DNA from: a virus
Lineage: Duplodnaviria > Heunggongvirae > Uroviricota > Caudoviricetes
Virus record (IMG/VR): IMGVR_UViG_2675903366_000018
Reading direction: 5' to 3' (one strand)
Length of the DNA: 15,292 bases
This document shows, in pieces, positions 1 to 15,292 of this stretch; position 1 is the first letter of the stretch, and each line of letters begins with the position of its first letter. The translations under genes were made by a program, and so were the position numbers. The notes under the pieces are model-generated. The model searched no databases. It saw nothing but the letters and a program-made list of their open reading frames with translations, and was not told the DNA's origin.

Positions 1-200
1 TGTCAGTTATCATCTTCGGTTACGGTTATCGGCAGAACGCCCTGCCGCTGACAAGAGCTTATTTGCCTGACCAATCTACTCCACATGATAGATAACTATC
101 ATTTATAGCATTTGGCTTATTATCCTTTATTTTTCATTGCGTTACAAACAATAAGCTCGTCAAAAACAGTAAAATTAACTACACCATTAACTACACCGTT

Positions 201-231
201 CCACGAACAATATCGAACAACCACGAACAAA
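201..231. repeat. Three direct 10-bp repeats (CCACGAACAA / TATCGAACAA / CCACGAACAA); near-identical second copy at 8429-8460
   Basis: Read directly from sequence: heptamer CGAACAA recurs three times at exactly 10-bp spacing; about 26 of 28 bases match the array upstream of the capsid gene. Confidence 0.8.
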
Positions 232-293
232 GATCAACACGCTTTAATCGTTATCGTTTTCCGGCTATCCGTTATCAAGCTGGTTGATGTGGT

Positions 294-325
294 GCCACTT
301 TTCCACCAATGGTGGAAAAGCCCAC
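294..325. repeat. 32-bp element GCCACTTTTCCACCAATGGTGGAAAAGCCCAC with internal palindrome (9-10 bp arms); exact second copy at 1005-1036
   Basis: Exact 32/32 match between 294-325 and 1005-1036; TTTTCCACCA / TGGTGGAAAA are reverse complements around a central A. Confidence 0.85.
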
Positions 326-455
326 CAGCGCAACGCATTTTTTAATTTCGCGGGTATAAAAATTTGACGGGGCGGATAGTTCCATAAGTAATGGATTGCA
401 GGAATTTCGATCCCCCTCCTGAATGCAATTTTTCGTATATATATATACAAAACAG

Positions 456-613
456 TGCGGGTTATGCGGGTTAGCGGGTTATCTTCGCGTGCTAAGTATT
501 TTTTATTCTTTAATATCAATACGTTAAAAAATGACGTGTTTAAATATTAGCCAAAACGTAACCCGCAAGACATTCAAAATAACCCGCAACCCCCCCCCAA
601 ATAACCCGCAAAC
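456..613. repeat. Origin-like iteron cluster: 3 tandem GCGGGTTAT-type repeats (456-483), ~75 bp AT-rich spacer, 3 inverted ATAACCCGCAA repeats at ~21-bp spacing (558-611)
   Basis: Same iteron sequence and same direct / AT-rich / inverted layout as the cluster at 9596-9722 downstream of the replication gene. Includes a (TA)6 run at 436-448 nearby and a C9 homopolymer at 590-598. Confidence 0.6.
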
Positions 614-1004
614 GCATCAGGAAAGTGGGTCCAGTGATGCCATCGAACGGCTGAATCGGGTAACGTTCTGTTGCCGGGTTGTTGTTTGCGGGTCAGCAAT
701 ACTGACGCGCAAAGTTAGTTGTATGTGGCTGTGCGTCCACCAGCTACGCCGGAATCGGGTATTCCGTTTCAACGGAACAGGTATGACGAACATGATCGCA
801 CCTTCTCCCGAAAACGGGTTTTCCTGTTTCGGGAAAATGGACACATGAAGCTGCATAGCGATTTTCACTATTCAGGGTCTGGCGGGTGAGTTTCTCAATT
901 TCCGCAGTTGGTGGAAATTAAACGAATACAGCGAGTTAGAACAAGGTGACTAATGGTCACTCTGTTGCTGCGTCACCATATTGATGATCCAGCCCTGTAG
1001 TCGC

Positions 1005-1036
1005 GCCACTTTTCCACCAATGGTGGAAAAGCCCAC
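1005..1036. repeat. Second copy of the 32-bp palindrome-containing repeat (see 294-325)
   Basis: Exact match to 294-325; followed at 1053-1067 by a second small hairpin (TCCCCC AAT GGGGGA) with the same AAT loop. Confidence 0.85.
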
Positions 1037-1581
1037 AGCAGGCCGCCCAGCCTCCCCCAATGGGGGATTCTGGAAGAATCAACGGGTTAGGCTGGTTTCC
1101 CCGATGTTCGCCGCTGGCGAATTTCGAAAATATCAACCAGTTACGTTAACGGCTATGGTCTGACAAGACAAACCACCGGGTAAATCAGATAATTACAGCA
1201 CCAGAATGTAAATTTATACTCTGCTTTAATATCAGTGGGTTAGGCCAAAGCCCGAAAAAGTGCTTTGTAAAAACTGAATACTGTAACTTTAACTTACGGT
1301 AATTGTTCTGCCTCGGTGCGCTCTCTTCCGTGGTCATTTCGACCATGCACCACACGAAAAGGGGGAGTGTTTATCACCTCCCCTTCGTGGTGATTTCCAC
1401 CATGCAGCCATCGCACCGCCACGCAAAAGGGATTTACCACTACCAGCTATATCCCTCAAATCCACCAGCGCAACACAGAACGCATAAAACCATTACGATG
1501 ACTCAGGACGCAAAACCACGTTTAACGTTGTTTTGCACTGAACCAGAATACTGTTCGTCTTTGTCTCGATGTCCGTACGCA

Positions 1582-8239: not shown

Positions 8240-8428
8240 GAAGGTTTTCTCGTATTGGTTAAGATTCAGGACGTGAAACCAACACGGAGGGAGCGCCGCC
8301 CGACACTCTCGGCATCTCGCAGATCAACCCGGCATCGCGCAGGGGTCAGGCGGCATTGTGGCGGCTCACGTCTGAGTGCCACACGCCAACATATACATAA
8401 AAATCAGTATGTAAACATCAGCCAGAAT

Positions 8429-8460
8429 CACCGAACAATCTGGAACAACCACGAACAAAT
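8429..8460. promoter_or_regulatory. CGAACAA direct-repeat array (3 copies, 10-bp phase) ~190-220 bp upstream of the capsid gene; putative regulator binding site for the head/packaging operon
   Basis: CACCGAACAATCTGGAACAACCACGAACAAAT; near-identical to 201-231. Lies in a 275-bp non-coding region upstream of the capsid ATG, flanked by A-tract repeats ACCTGAAAAAAA x2 at 8471-8497. Confidence 0.4.
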
Positions 8461-8513
8461 AATTTACAAAACCTGAAAAAAAGACCTGAAAAAAAATCCA
8501 GGCCTTTATCGCT

Positions 8514-9532: not shown

Positions 9533-9595
9533 GCTTTCTGCTCTCCGGTTTTAACGTTGATAGTTACGCTTGTTTAAACCCTTACTGTGAAATTC

Positions 9596-9722
9596 TGCGG
9601 GTTATAATCGCACTTTTGCGGGTTATAACTGCCGTTTTGCGGGTTACGTGCGGGTTATTGATTTCCTTTTTATTCATACAGTTAATGCACTTATACACAG
9701 GATAACCCGCATAACCCGCAAC
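9596..9722. repeat. Putative replication origin: 4 direct TGCGGGTTAT iterons (starts 9596, 9617, 9638, 9649), 40-bp AT-rich spacer, 2 inverted ATAACCCGC copies (9702, 9711)
   Basis: Read directly from sequence; 21-bp spacing of the first three iterons; ends 20 bp before the replication gene's stop codon (9743-9745), the usual place for the ori in PICI/SaPI-type satellites. Confidence 0.6.
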
Positions 9723-9742: not shown

Positions 9743-11875
9743 TTAATCTTCTGCCTCAGGCTGGAACATCAGCACGTAAAAAACATGCTGCTTCCCCCCA
9801 ATTTTGCCGAGCGCCTTTTTCTTGTAACGGCGATCGTTACCCGCTTCCAGCATTCCGGCAGCACTCAACGCGCGGGCAAAGTGAGACGGATTAAATCCCT
9901 GTGCTATCTCACCCTCAAACACATGCGGGAACGTGTAAAAACGGAACTCGTCATCTTCGTTTCTGATACTCCCCTTTCTGTATCCGGCAAGCTCTTTAAT
10001 CGGTAAATCACGCTCGTCAGAGTTGGGCCAAGGAAGGTATCTGCTGAATCCGAACGACGCTAAAAAAGCCTCTGCCTGTTCAACCATCTGTTTAAACTCC
10101 CTGTTCCCCGTGCCGAACTCCTTCACCCAGGCATTAAAATTATGCTGAATGGCATCGCGGCATTCCTGCTCATCCCAGCCAGTAACATGACCGGAAAGTA
10201 CAAGCGCGGCCTCCAGTATGGCGAATCGTTCCCCCACACGGTGAACCTGTTCGCCGTAGCTCTCCGGTATCAGGTTGCGCCACCGCTCGCGACATGCCCT
10301 TACCGCGTCCTTTGCCTCCTGCTGGTGTTCTGCCAGCCATTTAACCCACTCACGACCTGCCGCCCCGTGATTTTCTGTCCAGGCATCTTTTAACGCGTCT
10401 GCGTGCGCCTTTCCGGTGCTGTATTCGTGAAACTGCGAGGCCTTTTCCATCGGCACGTTAAGCAGACGGACAAGCTGCCCCGCTTTAATTTTTATCCCTT
10501 CCGTTTTGAGGAATGTTTCAACGTCCATTTCTCCGGTGCTGATTGCCACCGTGCGCCAGTGTTTTATCTCCCTGTTGCCGCCGTCCTTCGCCCCCTGTAA
10601 TTTCCCCGAACCGTTAAACAGCGTATAGGCTGACGTGGACACCTCCCGCGCGTTTCCGGCCTGGCCTATTTCATCCAGGGGTAACAGCCCGTCATTATGT
10701 GCTTCGGCCTCGTTGGCGATACCTAACGCCGTTCCGTACCAGGTCAGCCGTTGCGCGTCCGGCTCTCCCCATAAACTGGATGCGATGTTCTGTGTGGTGG
10801 TTTTCCCTGCTGATGACTGTTCGAAAAGATGTACCCCGAAGCCGTCAGCACCCACCAGCCCGATTAATGGTGCTGATAACGATACCGCCACACCCAGCAT
10901 CATGGACGGATTACCACCAGCCAACCGCGCAACGGTATCGCGCCAGCCCTCCGCCGTTCCTGCCTCGGAATAACCATTAACAGCGGCAGTTTTTCCGGTA
11001 AACAGGACTGGCTTTTCGCAATCACCAATGACCGAACCGTCCGGCATGATGTACGCGCCAAAATGCCAGCCCGTTGTTGTGCTTAACTGCCATTCCTCAT
11101 GGTTTCCGCTTAACTGCATCCAGTCAGCCAGGATAGCCCTGTATTTACCGTTGGTTGTCACATTCAGTCCGTGGTCTTTCAGCAGCCGCCAGCCGTCACG
11201 GTCGCCAATGCCCCCACACGGGATCGCCATTGTGATGACTTCATGGTTTGCTGGTTTTTTCCAGCGCATCACGCGGTAATGCTCTTTGCCGATTGTCCCC
11301 GTTCCCAGTAGTTCAAGCGGGGAACATAACCACGTCTCAGGCCGGATAATTTCGCCTGACTGCTTATCCACTTTTGGCGTTACCCAGAAAACACCATCGG
11401 CACGGCTTTCAACGCGGGGCTTTAATTCATCATCACCCGGGCTTGTGGTGGTTTTTTTCTTTACCGGAAGCTTAATTACCAGATCTGCAGAAAGATTCTG
11501 ACGCTCAACGTTCAGATAGCGCCGCCAGTTCTCACATTTCTGACCGTGCATTCCTTCAGGGTAAAAATTCGCATCCTGAATATCTGCCGCCGCCAGCTTC
11601 TGACCGATCTTTTTGGTCTCCACTAAATCCAGTTCTCCGGCCTGGTACAGCCTTACGCGTTTTTTCCCATCCGGAACAATTTTCAGCGCATCAAGTTCGG
11701 CAAGCTGATTTGGCCCAAGCCACACAGGCGGCACATCATCGCCAGATGCGGGGCCGTCCTGCTCCTGCCACTGTTTTGCATGTGCCCACGCATCACTACC
11801 CGCGAAAATAATTACCTCTGTGTCTTTGTGTTTTATTCCGCGTGGTTGTTTTTTTACGTTCGGTGCCAGTTTCAT
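9743..11875 (-). CDS. Replication initiator, primase/helicase-type (Pri-Rep-like), with central P-loop NTPase
   Basis: 710 aa; Walker A GVHLFEQSSAGKTTT and Walker B GLLPLDEIG in the central region; resembles DUF927/primase-associated replication proteins of satellites; ATG at 11873-11875 overlaps the upstream ORF's stop (ATGA). Confidence 0.75.
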   Translation of the reverse strand: MKLAPNVKKQPRGIKHKDTEVIIFAGSDAWAHAKQWQEQDGPASGDDVPPVWLGPNQLAELDALKIVPDGKKRVRLYQAGELDLVETKKIGQKLAAADIQDANFYPEGMHGQKCENWRRYLNVERQNLSADLVIKLPVKKKTTTSPGDDELKPRVESRADGVFWVTPKVDKQSGEIIRPETWLCSPLELLGTGTIGKEHYRVMRWKKPANHEVITMAIPCGGIGDRDGWRLLKDHGLNVTTNGKYRAILADWMQLSGNHEEWQLSTTTGWHFGAYIMPDGSVIGDCEKPVLFTGKTAAVNGYSEAGTAEGWRDTVARLAGGNPSMMLGVAVSLSAPLIGLVGADGFGVHLFEQSSAGKTTTQNIASSLWGEPDAQRLTWYGTALGIANEAEAHNDGLLPLDEIGQAGNAREVSTSAYTLFNGSGKLQGAKDGGNREIKHWRTVAISTGEMDVETFLKTEGIKIKAGQLVRLLNVPMEKASQFHEYSTGKAHADALKDAWTENHGAAGREWVKWLAEHQQEAKDAVRACRERWRNLIPESYGEQVHRVGERFAILEAALVLSGHVTGWDEQECRDAIQHNFNAWVKEFGTGNREFKQMVEQAEAFLASFGFSRYLPWPNSDERDLPIKELAGYRKGSIRNEDDEFRFYTFPHVFEGEIAQGFNPSHFARALSAAGMLEAGNDRRYKKKALGKIGGKQHVFYVLMFQPEAED

Positions 11876-12588: not shown

Positions 12589-12686
12589 AGCTGCCTCGAT
12601 ACTCTCGTTATCGTTGGTGGTTAGACGCCCCGTATGTGTTTCCGGCACTGCGGGGCGTTGCTCTTTGTATTTCAACAATCCTTTCG

Positions 12687-12766
12687 GTGTGTTTCATGTT
12701 ATGAGCGCATGAAACACACGTCAAGGCTTTTTGTATTTCTTTTTTTGTGTATACTGAAACACACCG
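12687..12766. promoter_or_regulatory. Divergent control region: perfect 12-bp inverted repeat GTGTGTTTCATG-N9-CATGAAACACAC (12687-12719), third half-site TGAAACACACCG (12755-12766) overlapping a -10-like TATACT (12750-12755)
   Basis: Read directly from sequence; lies between the minus-strand small-gene operon and the plus-strand gene starting at 12786 (AGGAG RBS at 12773-12777). Confidence 0.45.
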
Positions 12767-13434: not shown

Positions 13435-13644
13435 TTACGCTGCCTTACCTGAATTAATGCGATCCCGGCTTTTAACCCATTCCATAACCTCGGACAGCAG
13501 CCAACCAACAGAACGACCGCCCAGATTAAGACGTGACGGAAAGCATCCTTTTTTCTCCAGTTCGTAGCGTGTAGTGCGACACACTCCAGTTAACTTACGA
13601 CATTCATCCTCACGGATTACGCGATCTTCATTTATTTCACGCAT
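13435..13644 (-). CDS. alpA: AlpA-family phage transcriptional regulator / excisionase-like HTH protein
   Basis: 69 aa from ATG 13642-13644: MREINEDRVIREDECRKLTGVCRTTRYELEKKGCFPSRLNLGGRSVGWLLSEVMEWVKSR, the AlpA-type HTH pattern. The ORF-track version starts with GTG at 13731 (98 aa) and could be the true start; the HTH position favours the shorter form. Confidence 0.75.
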   Translation of the reverse strand: MREINEDRVIREDECRKLTGVCRTTRYELEKKGCFPSRLNLGGRSVGWLLSEVMEWVKSRDRINSGKAA

Positions 13645-14053
13645 ACAAAAACCTACATAAAAATTACGTATATAAACTTTTCTCTTAGCTGTAGATATAT
13701 GAGATCGGATATTACTTAGATTCTTTTTCACCTCTTAAATTAAAAACACAACCTTGCTAAAGGCTTTGTTCGCTAAGGTTCGTAGAAGCTCGTTAGTGTT
13801 TAAAATCGTGTCACGAGTTTTTAAGCGACGCAACAAAAAATGTCGTCATTTGGCATTACGCTTGAATTATCTCATTAAAAACAAATAGATAAACCATCAG
13901 GTATTGGAACAATCAAGAAATAGCTAATAAGGGTTTAGTAGGGTGCATTTCAATTTTTTCGATGGTTGACAAATAAAAAATTAACGAACTTGACCGATAT
14001 TTAGCGTTTTATTCACGGCTGTAATCTCTTAAAGAAAAAACAGCCGTAATTTG

Positions 14054-15292
14054 TCAAGAATTTTGGGTGTAAATTCGCGGGGTCATAACAACGATTTTTT
14101 CATCATTGTTCTGGAGAAGCTCGAGACGGTCTACCCATAGATTAAGAGCATCACGTTTTGCATCAAGATAACGGGAGTGGTTATAGACTCGCTGCATCCC
14201 TGGCATCTGGTGGGCTGTAAGCTGCTCGACAATATGCGGATCCACGCCTAAATCGTTCAGCATGGTTGTAAATGTGTGCCGGATGTCATGCAACGACCAG
14301 GGGGCTTGATTAATGCGTCTGTGTGCCGTTCTTCCGTACTCTGATACGGATGATTGCCCTTTCAGTTCTCCAAGCAATAAGCCCGTGTGCCTGTTCTTCT
14401 GCACCAGCTTCGTGACGAACGGCAAAATGCTTTCCGGTATTGGCCTGAATATGGCGACCTTCGTTTTGCTGTGCTCCTTCGGTACTGTCCAGAGCATTTC
14501 TTTAAAATCCCACTCCTGCACCTCAGAGCGCCTTAGCTCAGTGGTACGGCATCCAAAAACAATCAGGAGGCGAATTAGGGCGCTGTAGTATGGCGGGAAT
14601 ATTTTGTCATCCAGGGCGCGGAGTAATTCCCCAAGCTCCTTATTTGTTAGTACGCGCTCGCTCACTTCTGCTTTTTTTCCCACATCACCGACAACCATAT
14701 CATCAAGAACGTTGCTGATTGCGTATCGTCGTTTTCGGCAGTACTTAAGCGCCTGTTTGCATACCTGTAGCAAAAATCCGGCTGATACCGGATTACGCTT
14801 AGCAAGCTGGTCAAAACAGGCCAGCCAGTGGCGTAGCTCGCATTTTTCCAGTGGCATAGCGCCAATCTGGCTAATTATGTGTTTATTGATCCGGCTTTTC
14901 AGTGATTCGTAGTCAGTGCGCTTTTCCTTTGCGTACGATTCAAGCCAGTAAGTGAGCGCTTCCTTAACCGTCACGGGGGCTAACGCATCCTGTACAGCAT
15001 GATTAAGTTCATAGCGCGGATTTTTCCCCTCAGCCAGCCAGGCGCGACACTGTGCCGCTTTTTCCCTGGCAGCTTTCAGGCTCAGATCGGGATAATTGCC
15101 CAGCCTCAGACGTTCCGGTGATATCTGCCTACCAGTTCCGGCCCTGTAAGTGAAATACCAGGTTAACAGGCCATTGATTGAATGCCTTACGCTAAGGTTG
15201 CCACCATCATTAAAAAAGGTGCTTTTTGTGGTTGGTGATCCGCTTAATTTTCGTAAAAGAGTGTCGCTAAGTCTATGAATTGCCCTGCTCAT
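14054..15292 (-). CDS. int: Tyrosine site-specific integrase (P4-like family)
   Basis: 412 aa; catalytic-domain motifs GCRTTELRR, HDIRHTF (H-x-x-R) and YNHSRY (catalytic Tyr region); ATG is the last three bases of the window, so upstream attachment site and promoter are not visible. Confidence 0.9.
   Translation of the reverse strand: MSRAIHRLSDTLLRKLSGSPTTKSTFFNDGGNLSVRHSINGLLTWYFTYRAGTGRQISPERLRLGNYPDLSLKAAREKAAQCRAWLAEGKNPRYELNHAVQDALAPVTVKEALTYWLESYAKEKRTDYESLKSRINKHIISQIGAMPLEKCELRHWLACFDQLAKRNPVSAGFLLQVCKQALKYCRKRRYAISNVLDDMVVGDVGKKAEVSERVLTNKELGELLRALDDKIFPPYYSALIRLLIVFGCRTTELRRSEVQEWDFKEMLWTVPKEHSKTKVAIFRPIPESILPFVTKLVQKNRHTGLLLGELKGQSSVSEYGRTAHRRINQAPWSLHDIRHTFTTMLNDLGVDPHIVEQLTAHQMPGMQRVYNHSRYLDAKRDALNLWVDRLELLQNNDEKIVVMTPRIYTQNS

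Follow-up and report, generated by a model that had tools for sequence, protein, structure and literature searches.

A putative second origin unit beside the attachment site of a capsid-forming phage-inducible chromosomal island

The replication origin of Staphylococcus aureus pathogenicity islands (SaPIs) consists of opposed iterons around an AT-rich region, on both sides of which the self-loading Rep helicase is thought to load (PMC9371898; PMC6092414). The origin described for SaPIs and other phage-inducible chromosomal islands (PICIs) is a single unit with at least two iterons per side, the iterons match the C-terminal domain of the initiator, the initiator is a self-contained helicase, and satellite origins are usually annotated as one iteron block after rep. 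Here the 15,292-nt viral record IMGVR_UViG_2675903366_000018 (referred to as the window), a capsid-forming PICI (cf-PICI) inserted between clpS and cspD, was analysed with respect to a cluster of iterons at 456-613, called unit B. The window shares with this origin the opposed iterons (at least two per side) around an AT-rich core, the match of the iterons to the C-terminal domain of the initiator and an initiator that is itself a helicase, and differs in that there are two mirror-image units, of which unit A lies just 3′ of rep; unit B is 9.1 kb from the rep stop (9743) and thus lacks the position immediately 3′ of the initiator gene. Judged by comparison with related islands, 456-613 is the second unit of a two-unit satellite origin, split off by the packaging module. 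No description of a two-unit or split PICI origin was found in the literature searched.

Among other described satellites, the prototype EcCIEDL933 shares with the window the DUF927 initiator family, GCGGGTT iterons and the overall gene order. In EcCIEDL933, however, unit B adjoins unit A within the 371-bp interval between rep and the next gene, a small gene and ssb follow, and the tail carries no unit B; in the window, unit A has lost its neighbouring unit B together with most of the small gene, and unit B is found in the tail. P4 likewise has two distant clusters of initiator iterons, one directly 3′ of the initiator gene and the other kilobases away, with one of the two near attP, and it also has doubled repeats on both attP arms and an excisionase-regulator of the AlpA family. 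As with the P4 crr, the second cluster of the origin's iterons in the window is distant from the first. The P4 cluster near attP is the one next to the initiator gene, whereas in the window it is the distal one that lies near the attachment (att) site, and the crr is built of two iteron/AT-rich units as direct repeats, whereas the window units are mirror images. The initiators also differ, since P4 alpha belongs to a family with Zn_Ribbon_Prim, Toprim, D5_N, DUF5906 and Pox_D5 domains and the Rep of the window, with DUF927 only, does not. P4 alpha needs both ori and the distant crr, a requirement in cis that is proven for P4 and may apply here by analogy. Iteron plasmids (P1 with incA; R6K gamma with the distant alpha and beta) also carry extra initiator repeats away from the origin, possibly brought together by protein-mediated looping, and may offer a further analogy, but their RepA- or pi-type initiators recruit a host helicase, whereas here initiator and helicase are one protein and a full AT-rich core is present in the distal cluster as well.

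Two iteron units in the window and in its relatives

Exact matches to GCGGGTTA, counted on both strands, number 12 in the window and are all confined to 457-609 and 9597-9719, whereas shuffled sequences have 0.56 on average and never more than 3. The initial annotation of this DNA had reported the iterons at 456-613, in the same direct, AT-rich, inverted layout as the island origin; the iterons and the general plan were borne out, and the fine layout was not. Read on the plus strand, 456-613 has three tight copies, AT-rich DNA and three spaced copies, and 9597-9719 has four spaced copies, AT-rich DNA and two tight ones, so that the two are mirror images, and 456-473 forms a perfect 18-nt inverted match with 9703-9720. 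The unit B core, 77 bp long and 73% A+T, includes the most AT-rich 40 bp of the window (35/40 at ~493). With three exact copies on either side of the core, unit B has the layout of a SaPI/PICI origin, in which at least two opposed iterons stand on each side of an AT-rich region, and units A and B each fit the published definition of a SaPI origin (PMC9371898). Between two of the spaced unit B iterons is a run of nine C (589-598; G9 on the minus strand), where relatives have GGGGGGTGT; this homopolymer is island-specific and could vary by slippage.

The Rep of the window is related to a staphylococcal island protein of solved structure (PDB 8tch). For comparison, 80 viral-contig loci with a Rep identity of 59-91% were examined. 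In about 50 of the 80, units A and B are adjacent, at +26 to +340 from the rep stop; unit A consists of two tight iterons, AT-rich DNA and four spaced iterons, and unit B of two to three spaced iterons, ~80-95 bp of AT-rich DNA and two to three tight iterons of opposite sense. The window sequence at 456-613 aligns with the unit B of these adjacent-type loci in the order spaced iterons, AT-rich core, tight iterons and GTTTTG(TA)nC-GAAAAATTG, and homology stops after GAAAAATTG. By this alignment, 456-613 is a homologue of unit B of the two-unit origin of the family. In adjacent-type relatives the GTTTTG(TA)nC element stands directly before the ribosome binding site and start of the next gene, and it is kept in two loci, L033 and L038, in which unit B has collapsed.

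Six iteron classes (GCGGGTT, GTGGGTT, TGAACCAAC, TGAACCACG, GGGACAA and GGGATAA) were distinguished, one word being common to both units of a locus, and across the six classes the word tracks the C-terminal ~110 aa of Rep. The initiators of loci L017 and L040-L045 illustrate this: compared with the window protein, they are 83-96% identical in the first ~600 residues but only ~44% in the C-terminal ~110, and both of their units have a different iteron. For L017, whose two units both have GGGACAA, the values are 96% (residues 1-600) and 44% (C-terminal part). In the window, the unit B iterons are identical to those of the rep-adjacent unit A. As far as such covariation can tell, the C-terminal ~110 aa of Rep set iteron specificity, and specificity domain and origin are swapped together as a single module. 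The DUF4222 protein encoded in the window was considered as an iteron binder and rejected, since DUF4222 similarity does not track iteron class. Phage records of the collection searched contain neither the DUF927 specificity domain nor unit B except for a Klebsiella phage, at 56% identity, and a 2.2-kb record (O157:H7 host) that probably derives from an island; with these two exceptions only, mimicry of a helper-phage origin by unit B was ruled out.

Complete E. coli genomes with unit B number 300, those with unit A, which overlaps or adjoins DUF927 genes, 252, those with either unit 301 and those with the adjacent pair 141, and unit A thus almost never occurs without unit B in this species. 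The split form was found in the window, in SM107 and in 15-16 viral-contig loci, in one of which the contig end cuts the unit; unit B is there 7.7-9.2 kb from rep, after terL. Adjacent and distal copies of unit B were never seen together in one of the loci examined. Next to unit A, the split-type islands have a junction scar in which unit B and most of the small gene, orf85, are gone (Table 1). The scar is identical in every split-type island examined (window, SM107, L020 and L023) and was also found in L009, whose contig stops before a distal unit could appear; full orf85 is kept in adjacent-type islands and in islands with other Rep proteins. Since the split islands examined have this scar in common, the split arose once.

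Distal unit B copies lie inside islands at clpS/cspD, thiM/rcnR, yifB, tRNA-Ile and tRNA-Pro, and in islands flanked on both sides by prophage-type genes. Among 14 distinct distal copies, 1 of 48 iteron columns is variable, compared with 41 of 121 other columns (Fisher p=2.5e-6). By this measure, the distal unit B iterons are under purifying selection.

Two-unit iteron regions after an initiator gene may be general in such satellites. In an E. coli PICI whose primase is P4-like, the iteron is TGTTCACC, the type-1 iteron of P4 (L088 2225-2525; L086 4291-4590), and the origin 3′ of the primase gene resembles the two-unit P4 crr.

Table 1. Features of the 15,292-nt window (strand "." where none applies)
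Feature	Position	Strand	Description
Chromosomal DNA directly upstream of clpS	1..102	.	Last 16 nt (87-102) are a copy of the att core, GATAGATAACTATCAT
Doubled arm-type motif AACTACACC-ATT-AACTACACC	177..197	+	int-distal attP arm; sole copy in window; ~92 bp from core centre
Three CGAACAA heptamers	204..230	+	10-bp phasing; 7 bp internal to doubled arm motif; probably AlpA (excisionase/regulator) sites
Perfect palindrome CTTTTCCACCAATGGTGGAAAAG	298..320	.	23 bp; second copy at 1009-1031; both within a 37-nt repeat, 95% identical
Conserved non-coding segment	321..424	-	~100 nt; always follows distal unit B; 272 E. coli genomes, 74-96% identity
GTTTTG(TA)6C-GAAAAATTG element	425..453	-	Abuts tight unit B iterons; found in all six iteron classes
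Origin unit B	456..613	.	Three tight iterons 457-481, AT-rich core 482-558, three inverted iterons 559-609 spaced 21-22 bp
Unit B iterons	457, 466, 474; 559, 580, 602	+; -	Exact GCGGGTTA
Non-coding tail	614..1581	.	Separates unit B from the last gene (1582-1875); holds a series of dissimilar short palindromes
CGAACAA/GGAACAA/CGAACAA array	8432..8458	+	17-43 bp upstream of -35 hexamer of capsid-operon promoter-like site (8415-8388, minus strand)
Junction scar	9533..9596	-	Last unit A iteron fused to final ~28 nt of orf85, then ssb start; unit B and most of orf85 gone
Origin unit A	9597..9719	.	AT-rich core 9658-9702 between four spaced iterons (9597-9657) and two tight inverted ones (9703-9719); 24 bp beyond the 3′ end of rep
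Unit A iterons	9597, 9618, 9639, 9650; 9703, 9712	+; -	Exact GCGGGTTA
Replication initiator-helicase Rep (DUF927)	9743..11875	-	Pfam DUF927, E=7e-46; PDB 8tch 'Pathogenicity island protein', E=2e-15
AlpA	13435..13731	-	PF05930, E=1e-15; Pfam family also holds P4 Vis; candidate binder of CGAACAA arrays
Tyrosine integrase	14054..15292	-	PF00589 and PF13356 (N-terminal arm-DNA-binding domain, E=8e-16)

Possible roles of the distal unit

By this comparison, DUF927 satellites typically have mirror-image units A and B just 3′ of rep, each of them a full SaPI/PICI-type origin. In the split lineage a single ancestral rearrangement would have taken unit B and the small gene following it away from unit A, and the sole unit B now stands 9 kb off, beyond the block of ssb, perC, capsid and packaging genes and ~350 bp from the att core. 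Rep most likely binds unit B via its C-terminal domain, because the six unit B iterons reproduce those of unit A exactly and no DNA of the island is more AT-rich than that in unit B. Once bound, unit B would probably act together with unit A, either as a second site of helicase loading or melting or as a cis partner via DNA looping, as suggested by the analogy with P4 ori and crr. One of two explanations offered by the initial annotation, a second initiator-binding platform at the island end, is in this way supported by the homology of unit B. To the whole proposal, that is, a split two-unit origin with distal unit B as a Rep platform together with AlpA-bound heptamers in the attP arm (see below), we assign a probability of roughly 0.7.

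Several observations weigh against this reading. In about 49 E. coli genomes unit B is present without unit A, and an intact orphan unit B lies at the tail of islands in F11, PEC148, ETEC1747 and EC12, whose initiators and origins are unrelated to those of the window (GTAGACA iterons in F11, a RepA helicase in PEC148 and ETEC1747, a P4-like system with TGTTCACC in EC12). Since such orphans exist, persistence of unit B does not always need the cognate Rep in cis. Unit B is also not universally required, since some relatives (L029, L030, L032-34, L038 and L077) have unit A only or a collapsed unit B. The co-occurrence of units A and B in the split lineage reflects in part shared descent, since the split arose once, and the conservation test counts columns of related sequences and not independent events.

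Much of this would be expected if unit B were an inert leftover of a former adjacent pair, moved to the tail by recombination and hitch-hiking with a conserved end module. Orphan copies occur with three other initiator families and at no fewer than five att sites, the genomes with unit B alone and the relatives with unit A alone agree with such a history, and the tail of F11 matches window positions 1-1144 at 98.8% identity, so the end module has been exchanged recently. A leftover of this kind is nevertheless unlikely, since its iterons have stayed perfect while 34% of the other columns vary, even the orphans of lowest identity (77-78% to the EDL933 A+B query) keep 5-7 perfect iterons, the AT-rich core is kept too, unit B is never found twice in an island, and E. 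coli genomes with unit A almost always have unit B as well. Possible reasons for the perfect iterons of the orphans are frequent exchange of tail modules, use in trans, or competition between islands. Unit B in the tail could be a trans-acting handle between satellites, a perfect DUF927 Rep site kept by islands with unrelated initiators, which either would be replicated by a co-resident or incoming cf-PICI or would soak up its Rep and exclude this rival; in islands with the cognate Rep, the helicase could load at two places lying opposite each other on the circular form because the origin is split. We regard this extension as rather unlikely.

In iteron plasmids, additional clusters outside the origin are known to control copy number (P1 incA), and handcuffing occurs. 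Unit B could by the same token titrate Rep or pair with unit A, limiting replication of its own island or blocking related ones, and the presence of the origin's iterons far from the origin, the orphans in unrelated islands, which could act against DUF927 islands, and the parallel with the extra-origin clusters of plasmids all speak for it. Such a restraint is improbable here, since in most relatives unit B is directly beside unit A and part of the origin itself, the full AT-rich core is kept and would be superfluous in a pure titration site, and satellites that amplify in a burst after induction would have little reason for copy-number restraint. Equally improbable is a role as promoter or operator, with the (TA)n element controlled by Rep and driving the next gene in the adjacent type and, in the window, transcription across att into clpS (integrated) or int (circular). 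GTTTTG(TA)nC-GAAAAATTGAGG followed by a gene start is indeed conserved in all iteron classes, the element is retained where unit B has collapsed, and it points along the strand of all island genes and of clpS. However, a sigma-70 scan makes no call at the element, the split islands have no gene after it, the next 100 nt showing frame-breaking indels and weak structural covariation, and such a role accounts for neither the spaced iterons nor the AT-rich core of 77 bp.

The other explanation in the initial annotation, that a related satellite had integrated in tandem and decayed, leaving 103-1580 as its remnant, arose from the close, gene-free association of an origin-like cluster with a repeat of the capsid promoter. 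It is practically excluded, because distal unit B copies keep their iterons, with no decay of formerly functional sites, and are spread over several att sites. Both the att core and the arm motif are single in the window, the segment is found inside islands at several unrelated chromosomal sites, 456-613 has the mirror layout of unit B and not that of a collapsed unit A, and the heptamers belong to an arm structure present at both ends of single islands.

If the split-origin proposal holds, a large satellite family has two origin units, the second of which may sit 9 kb away beside the attachment site. Trimming of the apparently empty island end in deletion analyses, minimal replicons or engineered cf-PICI delivery vehicles would then remove a predicted Rep target. 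Islands with adjacent units, split units, unit A only and orphan unit B amount to a natural experiment on the role of a second unit for a self-loading helicase, and, given the orphans that accompany other initiators, co-resident satellites may engage in cross-talk or conflict.

The attP arm and the CGAACAA heptamers

Between unit B and the att core, at 201-231, the initial annotation had noted a second copy of the triple CGAACAA repeat of the capsid promoter (8429-8460). The repeat itself is real, since CGAACAA-N3-SGAACAA-N3-CGAACAA matches the window at 204-230 and 8432-8458 only (0.00 expected) and the two blocks are identical at 26 of 28 positions; like the iterons, it lies far beyond short chance similarity. 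Its reading as a promoter copy was not upheld. The likeness is confined to the 28-nt block, the hexamers at 8415-8388 and the conserved leader are not repeated near 204-230, and in islands representing four integrase types, related blocks adjoin the doubled arm motif at either end. On these comparisons the triplet is an attP-arm element, separate from any second promoter.

The integrase of the window is P4-like in having the arm-DNA-binding domain PF13356, for which the doubled motif is probably the binding site; where the N-terminal domain of the integrase differs, so does the motif (SM107, for instance, has CTGACCACAC). The window stops short of the int-side arm of its island, and co-oriented repeats on both sides of the core were seen in F11, whose integrase is 97-98% identical. 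There, doubled motifs at 18177-18197 and 28776-28796 are ~92 and ~140 bp from the cores, and the int-side one adjoins int and is followed by four related heptamers. SM107 and PEC148 have a doubled motif and phased heptamers on both arms, with motif variants of their own, EDL933 has them on the int-distal arm, and islands at the fis site have a related version on both arms. Arm repeats on both sides of the core, adjoining phased short repeats and an arm-binding integrase are also features of lambda- and P4-type attP sites with Xis or Vis sites, which differ in that the heptamers here occur on both arms and also upstream of the capsid operon; the protein assigned to them here is a candidate. Comparable arm geometry has been reported for helper-embedded PICIs (HE-PICIs), with a similar asymmetry of spacing (PMC10111431). 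The P4 type-2 repeats were considered as a counterpart of the heptamers and rejected, since the sequences are unrelated.

AlpA probably binds the arm heptamers for excision, and at the like array upstream of the capsid promoter it would switch on the packaging operon. P4 ORF88/Vis, annotated as 'excisionase and transcriptional regulator', matches the same family, PF05930, at E=2e-20. The capsid-promoter array is kept in E. coli cf-PICIs of any integrase type, and in five islands the first base of the heptamer (C or G) tracks AlpA type and not integrase type, the grouping of window, F11 and SM107 versus PEC148 and EDL933 being that of AlpA identity (95-100% versus ~60%) and not that of the integrase N-terminal domain (62% for SM107). 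Five islands are a small basis, and the fis-site lineage is at odds with the trend, since L065 and L069 have int and alpA matches alike in position and in identity to the window proteins and yet differ in their capsid-promoter repeats; the assignment to AlpA is for this reason kept conditional.

The same discrepancy would also fit a heptamer array bound by the arm-binding domain of the integrase or by a host factor. The integrase has such a domain, and three phased direct repeats in the int-distal arm resemble P'1-P'3 of lambda, which are three adjacent integrase arm sites. This is a possibility to be taken seriously, but we consider AlpA the better candidate, since the heptamer variant follows AlpA and not the integrase N-terminal domain, the motif that does follow the integrase is the doubled one, and an integrase array upstream of the capsid promoter would have no obvious role.

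The capsid-operon leader (8340-8480, minus strand) comprises TTTTGTAAATTAT, three phased repeats, TTTACA-16-TATGTT and GTGGCACTCAGACGTGAGCCGCCAC and is highly conserved in distant cf-PICIs; its repeat word varies by lineage (TTGTTCG, TGTTT(T/G)CG or TTACCC-like) and the remainder is nearly invariant.

The island, its boundary and its non-coding tail

All large open reading frames (ORFs) of the window are on the minus strand. From right to left, Pfam matches identify a tyrosine integrase, AlpA, the DUF4222 protein, the 710-aa DUF927 initiator, SSB and PerC, and these are followed by capsid, protease, portal, connectors, HNH, small terminase and large terminase, named from Pfam and from RefSeq, in which SM107 and PEC148 have annotated proteins of 97-100% identity. 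Such a set of genes defines cf-PICIs (bioRxiv 10.1101/2022.09.08.507074): int, alpA and rep with the island's own capsid, protease, portal, connector, HNH, TerS and TerL genes, without tail genes, in ~15 kb. Helper-phage-dependent induction and the hijacking of tails, which are cf-PICI traits, are predicted here from the gene set. A 26-nt inverted repeat (9-nt gap, 81% complementary) near the start of a 271-aa ORF, at 12673-12733, may be an early-region operator.

The segment 103-1580, previously taken for the left flank, lies inside the island and is its att-distal end. Bases 1-106 are found at 99% identity in 5425 of 5426 complete E. coli genomes, and the conserved chromosomal part ends at about base 102-106 instead of continuing through 1-1580. 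In an island-free K-12 strain the empty site reads GATAGATAACTATCAT joined to CTATCGTTGG, which begins CTATCG, and in strain F11 a different satellite occupies the clpS site with the 16-bp core on both of its sides (18087 and 28918). When up to three mismatches were allowed, the only core copy in the window was that at 87-102. Empty site, core position and E. coli match together place the start of the island at about base 103, which corrects its boundary and identifies predicted arm sites for excision. Just inside this end, a promoter-like TTGTAA-17-GATAAT (119-147, minus strand) is directed across the att core to clpS, and the island, lying directly upstream of clpS, may replace the clpS promoter or add to it.

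Around unit B, several other candidate functions were tried and rejected. ORFs at 265-519 (minus strand) and 531-848 (plus strand) have no Pfam match and show frame-breaking indels in related copies, which rules out protein coding. A structured small RNA downstream of unit B was ruled out by an RNAalifold covariation term of only -0.22 kcal/mol over nine diverse copies, and a tRNA fragment or fossil att at 320-424 by the lack of any ARAGORN call and of any Rfam match at E<=1. Where the window has the palindrome at 298-320, between unit B and the att arm, related islands have another one between constant flanks (...GCTGGTGGGC / CCACCAGC...). The gene-free tail on the other side of unit B (~970 bp) has palindromes at 762-777, 810-837, 899-917, 946-960, 1009-1031, 1047-1073 and 1102-1126, several of them preceded by iteron-like GTAAC(C/T)NG(C/T)TGAT words. 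An analogous array in the EDL933 island tail (L085 1260-2100) repeats a constant word with a variable palindrome about seven times, and SM107 lacks most of it.

A lambda-type cos site in the tail was suggested by the cosN-like ACGGGGCGG at 366-374 and ruled out, since the best match to GGGCGGCGACCT in 1-1600 has at least three mismatches. In L005, a non-capsid-forming PICI with a DUF927 initiator like that of the window, a lambda-like cosN, GCGACCTCGCGGTTTTTCGCTATTTATGAG, is found at ~9940-9990, just upstream of the last gene and not in the tail, which fits classical PICIs bearing a helper-type cos site.

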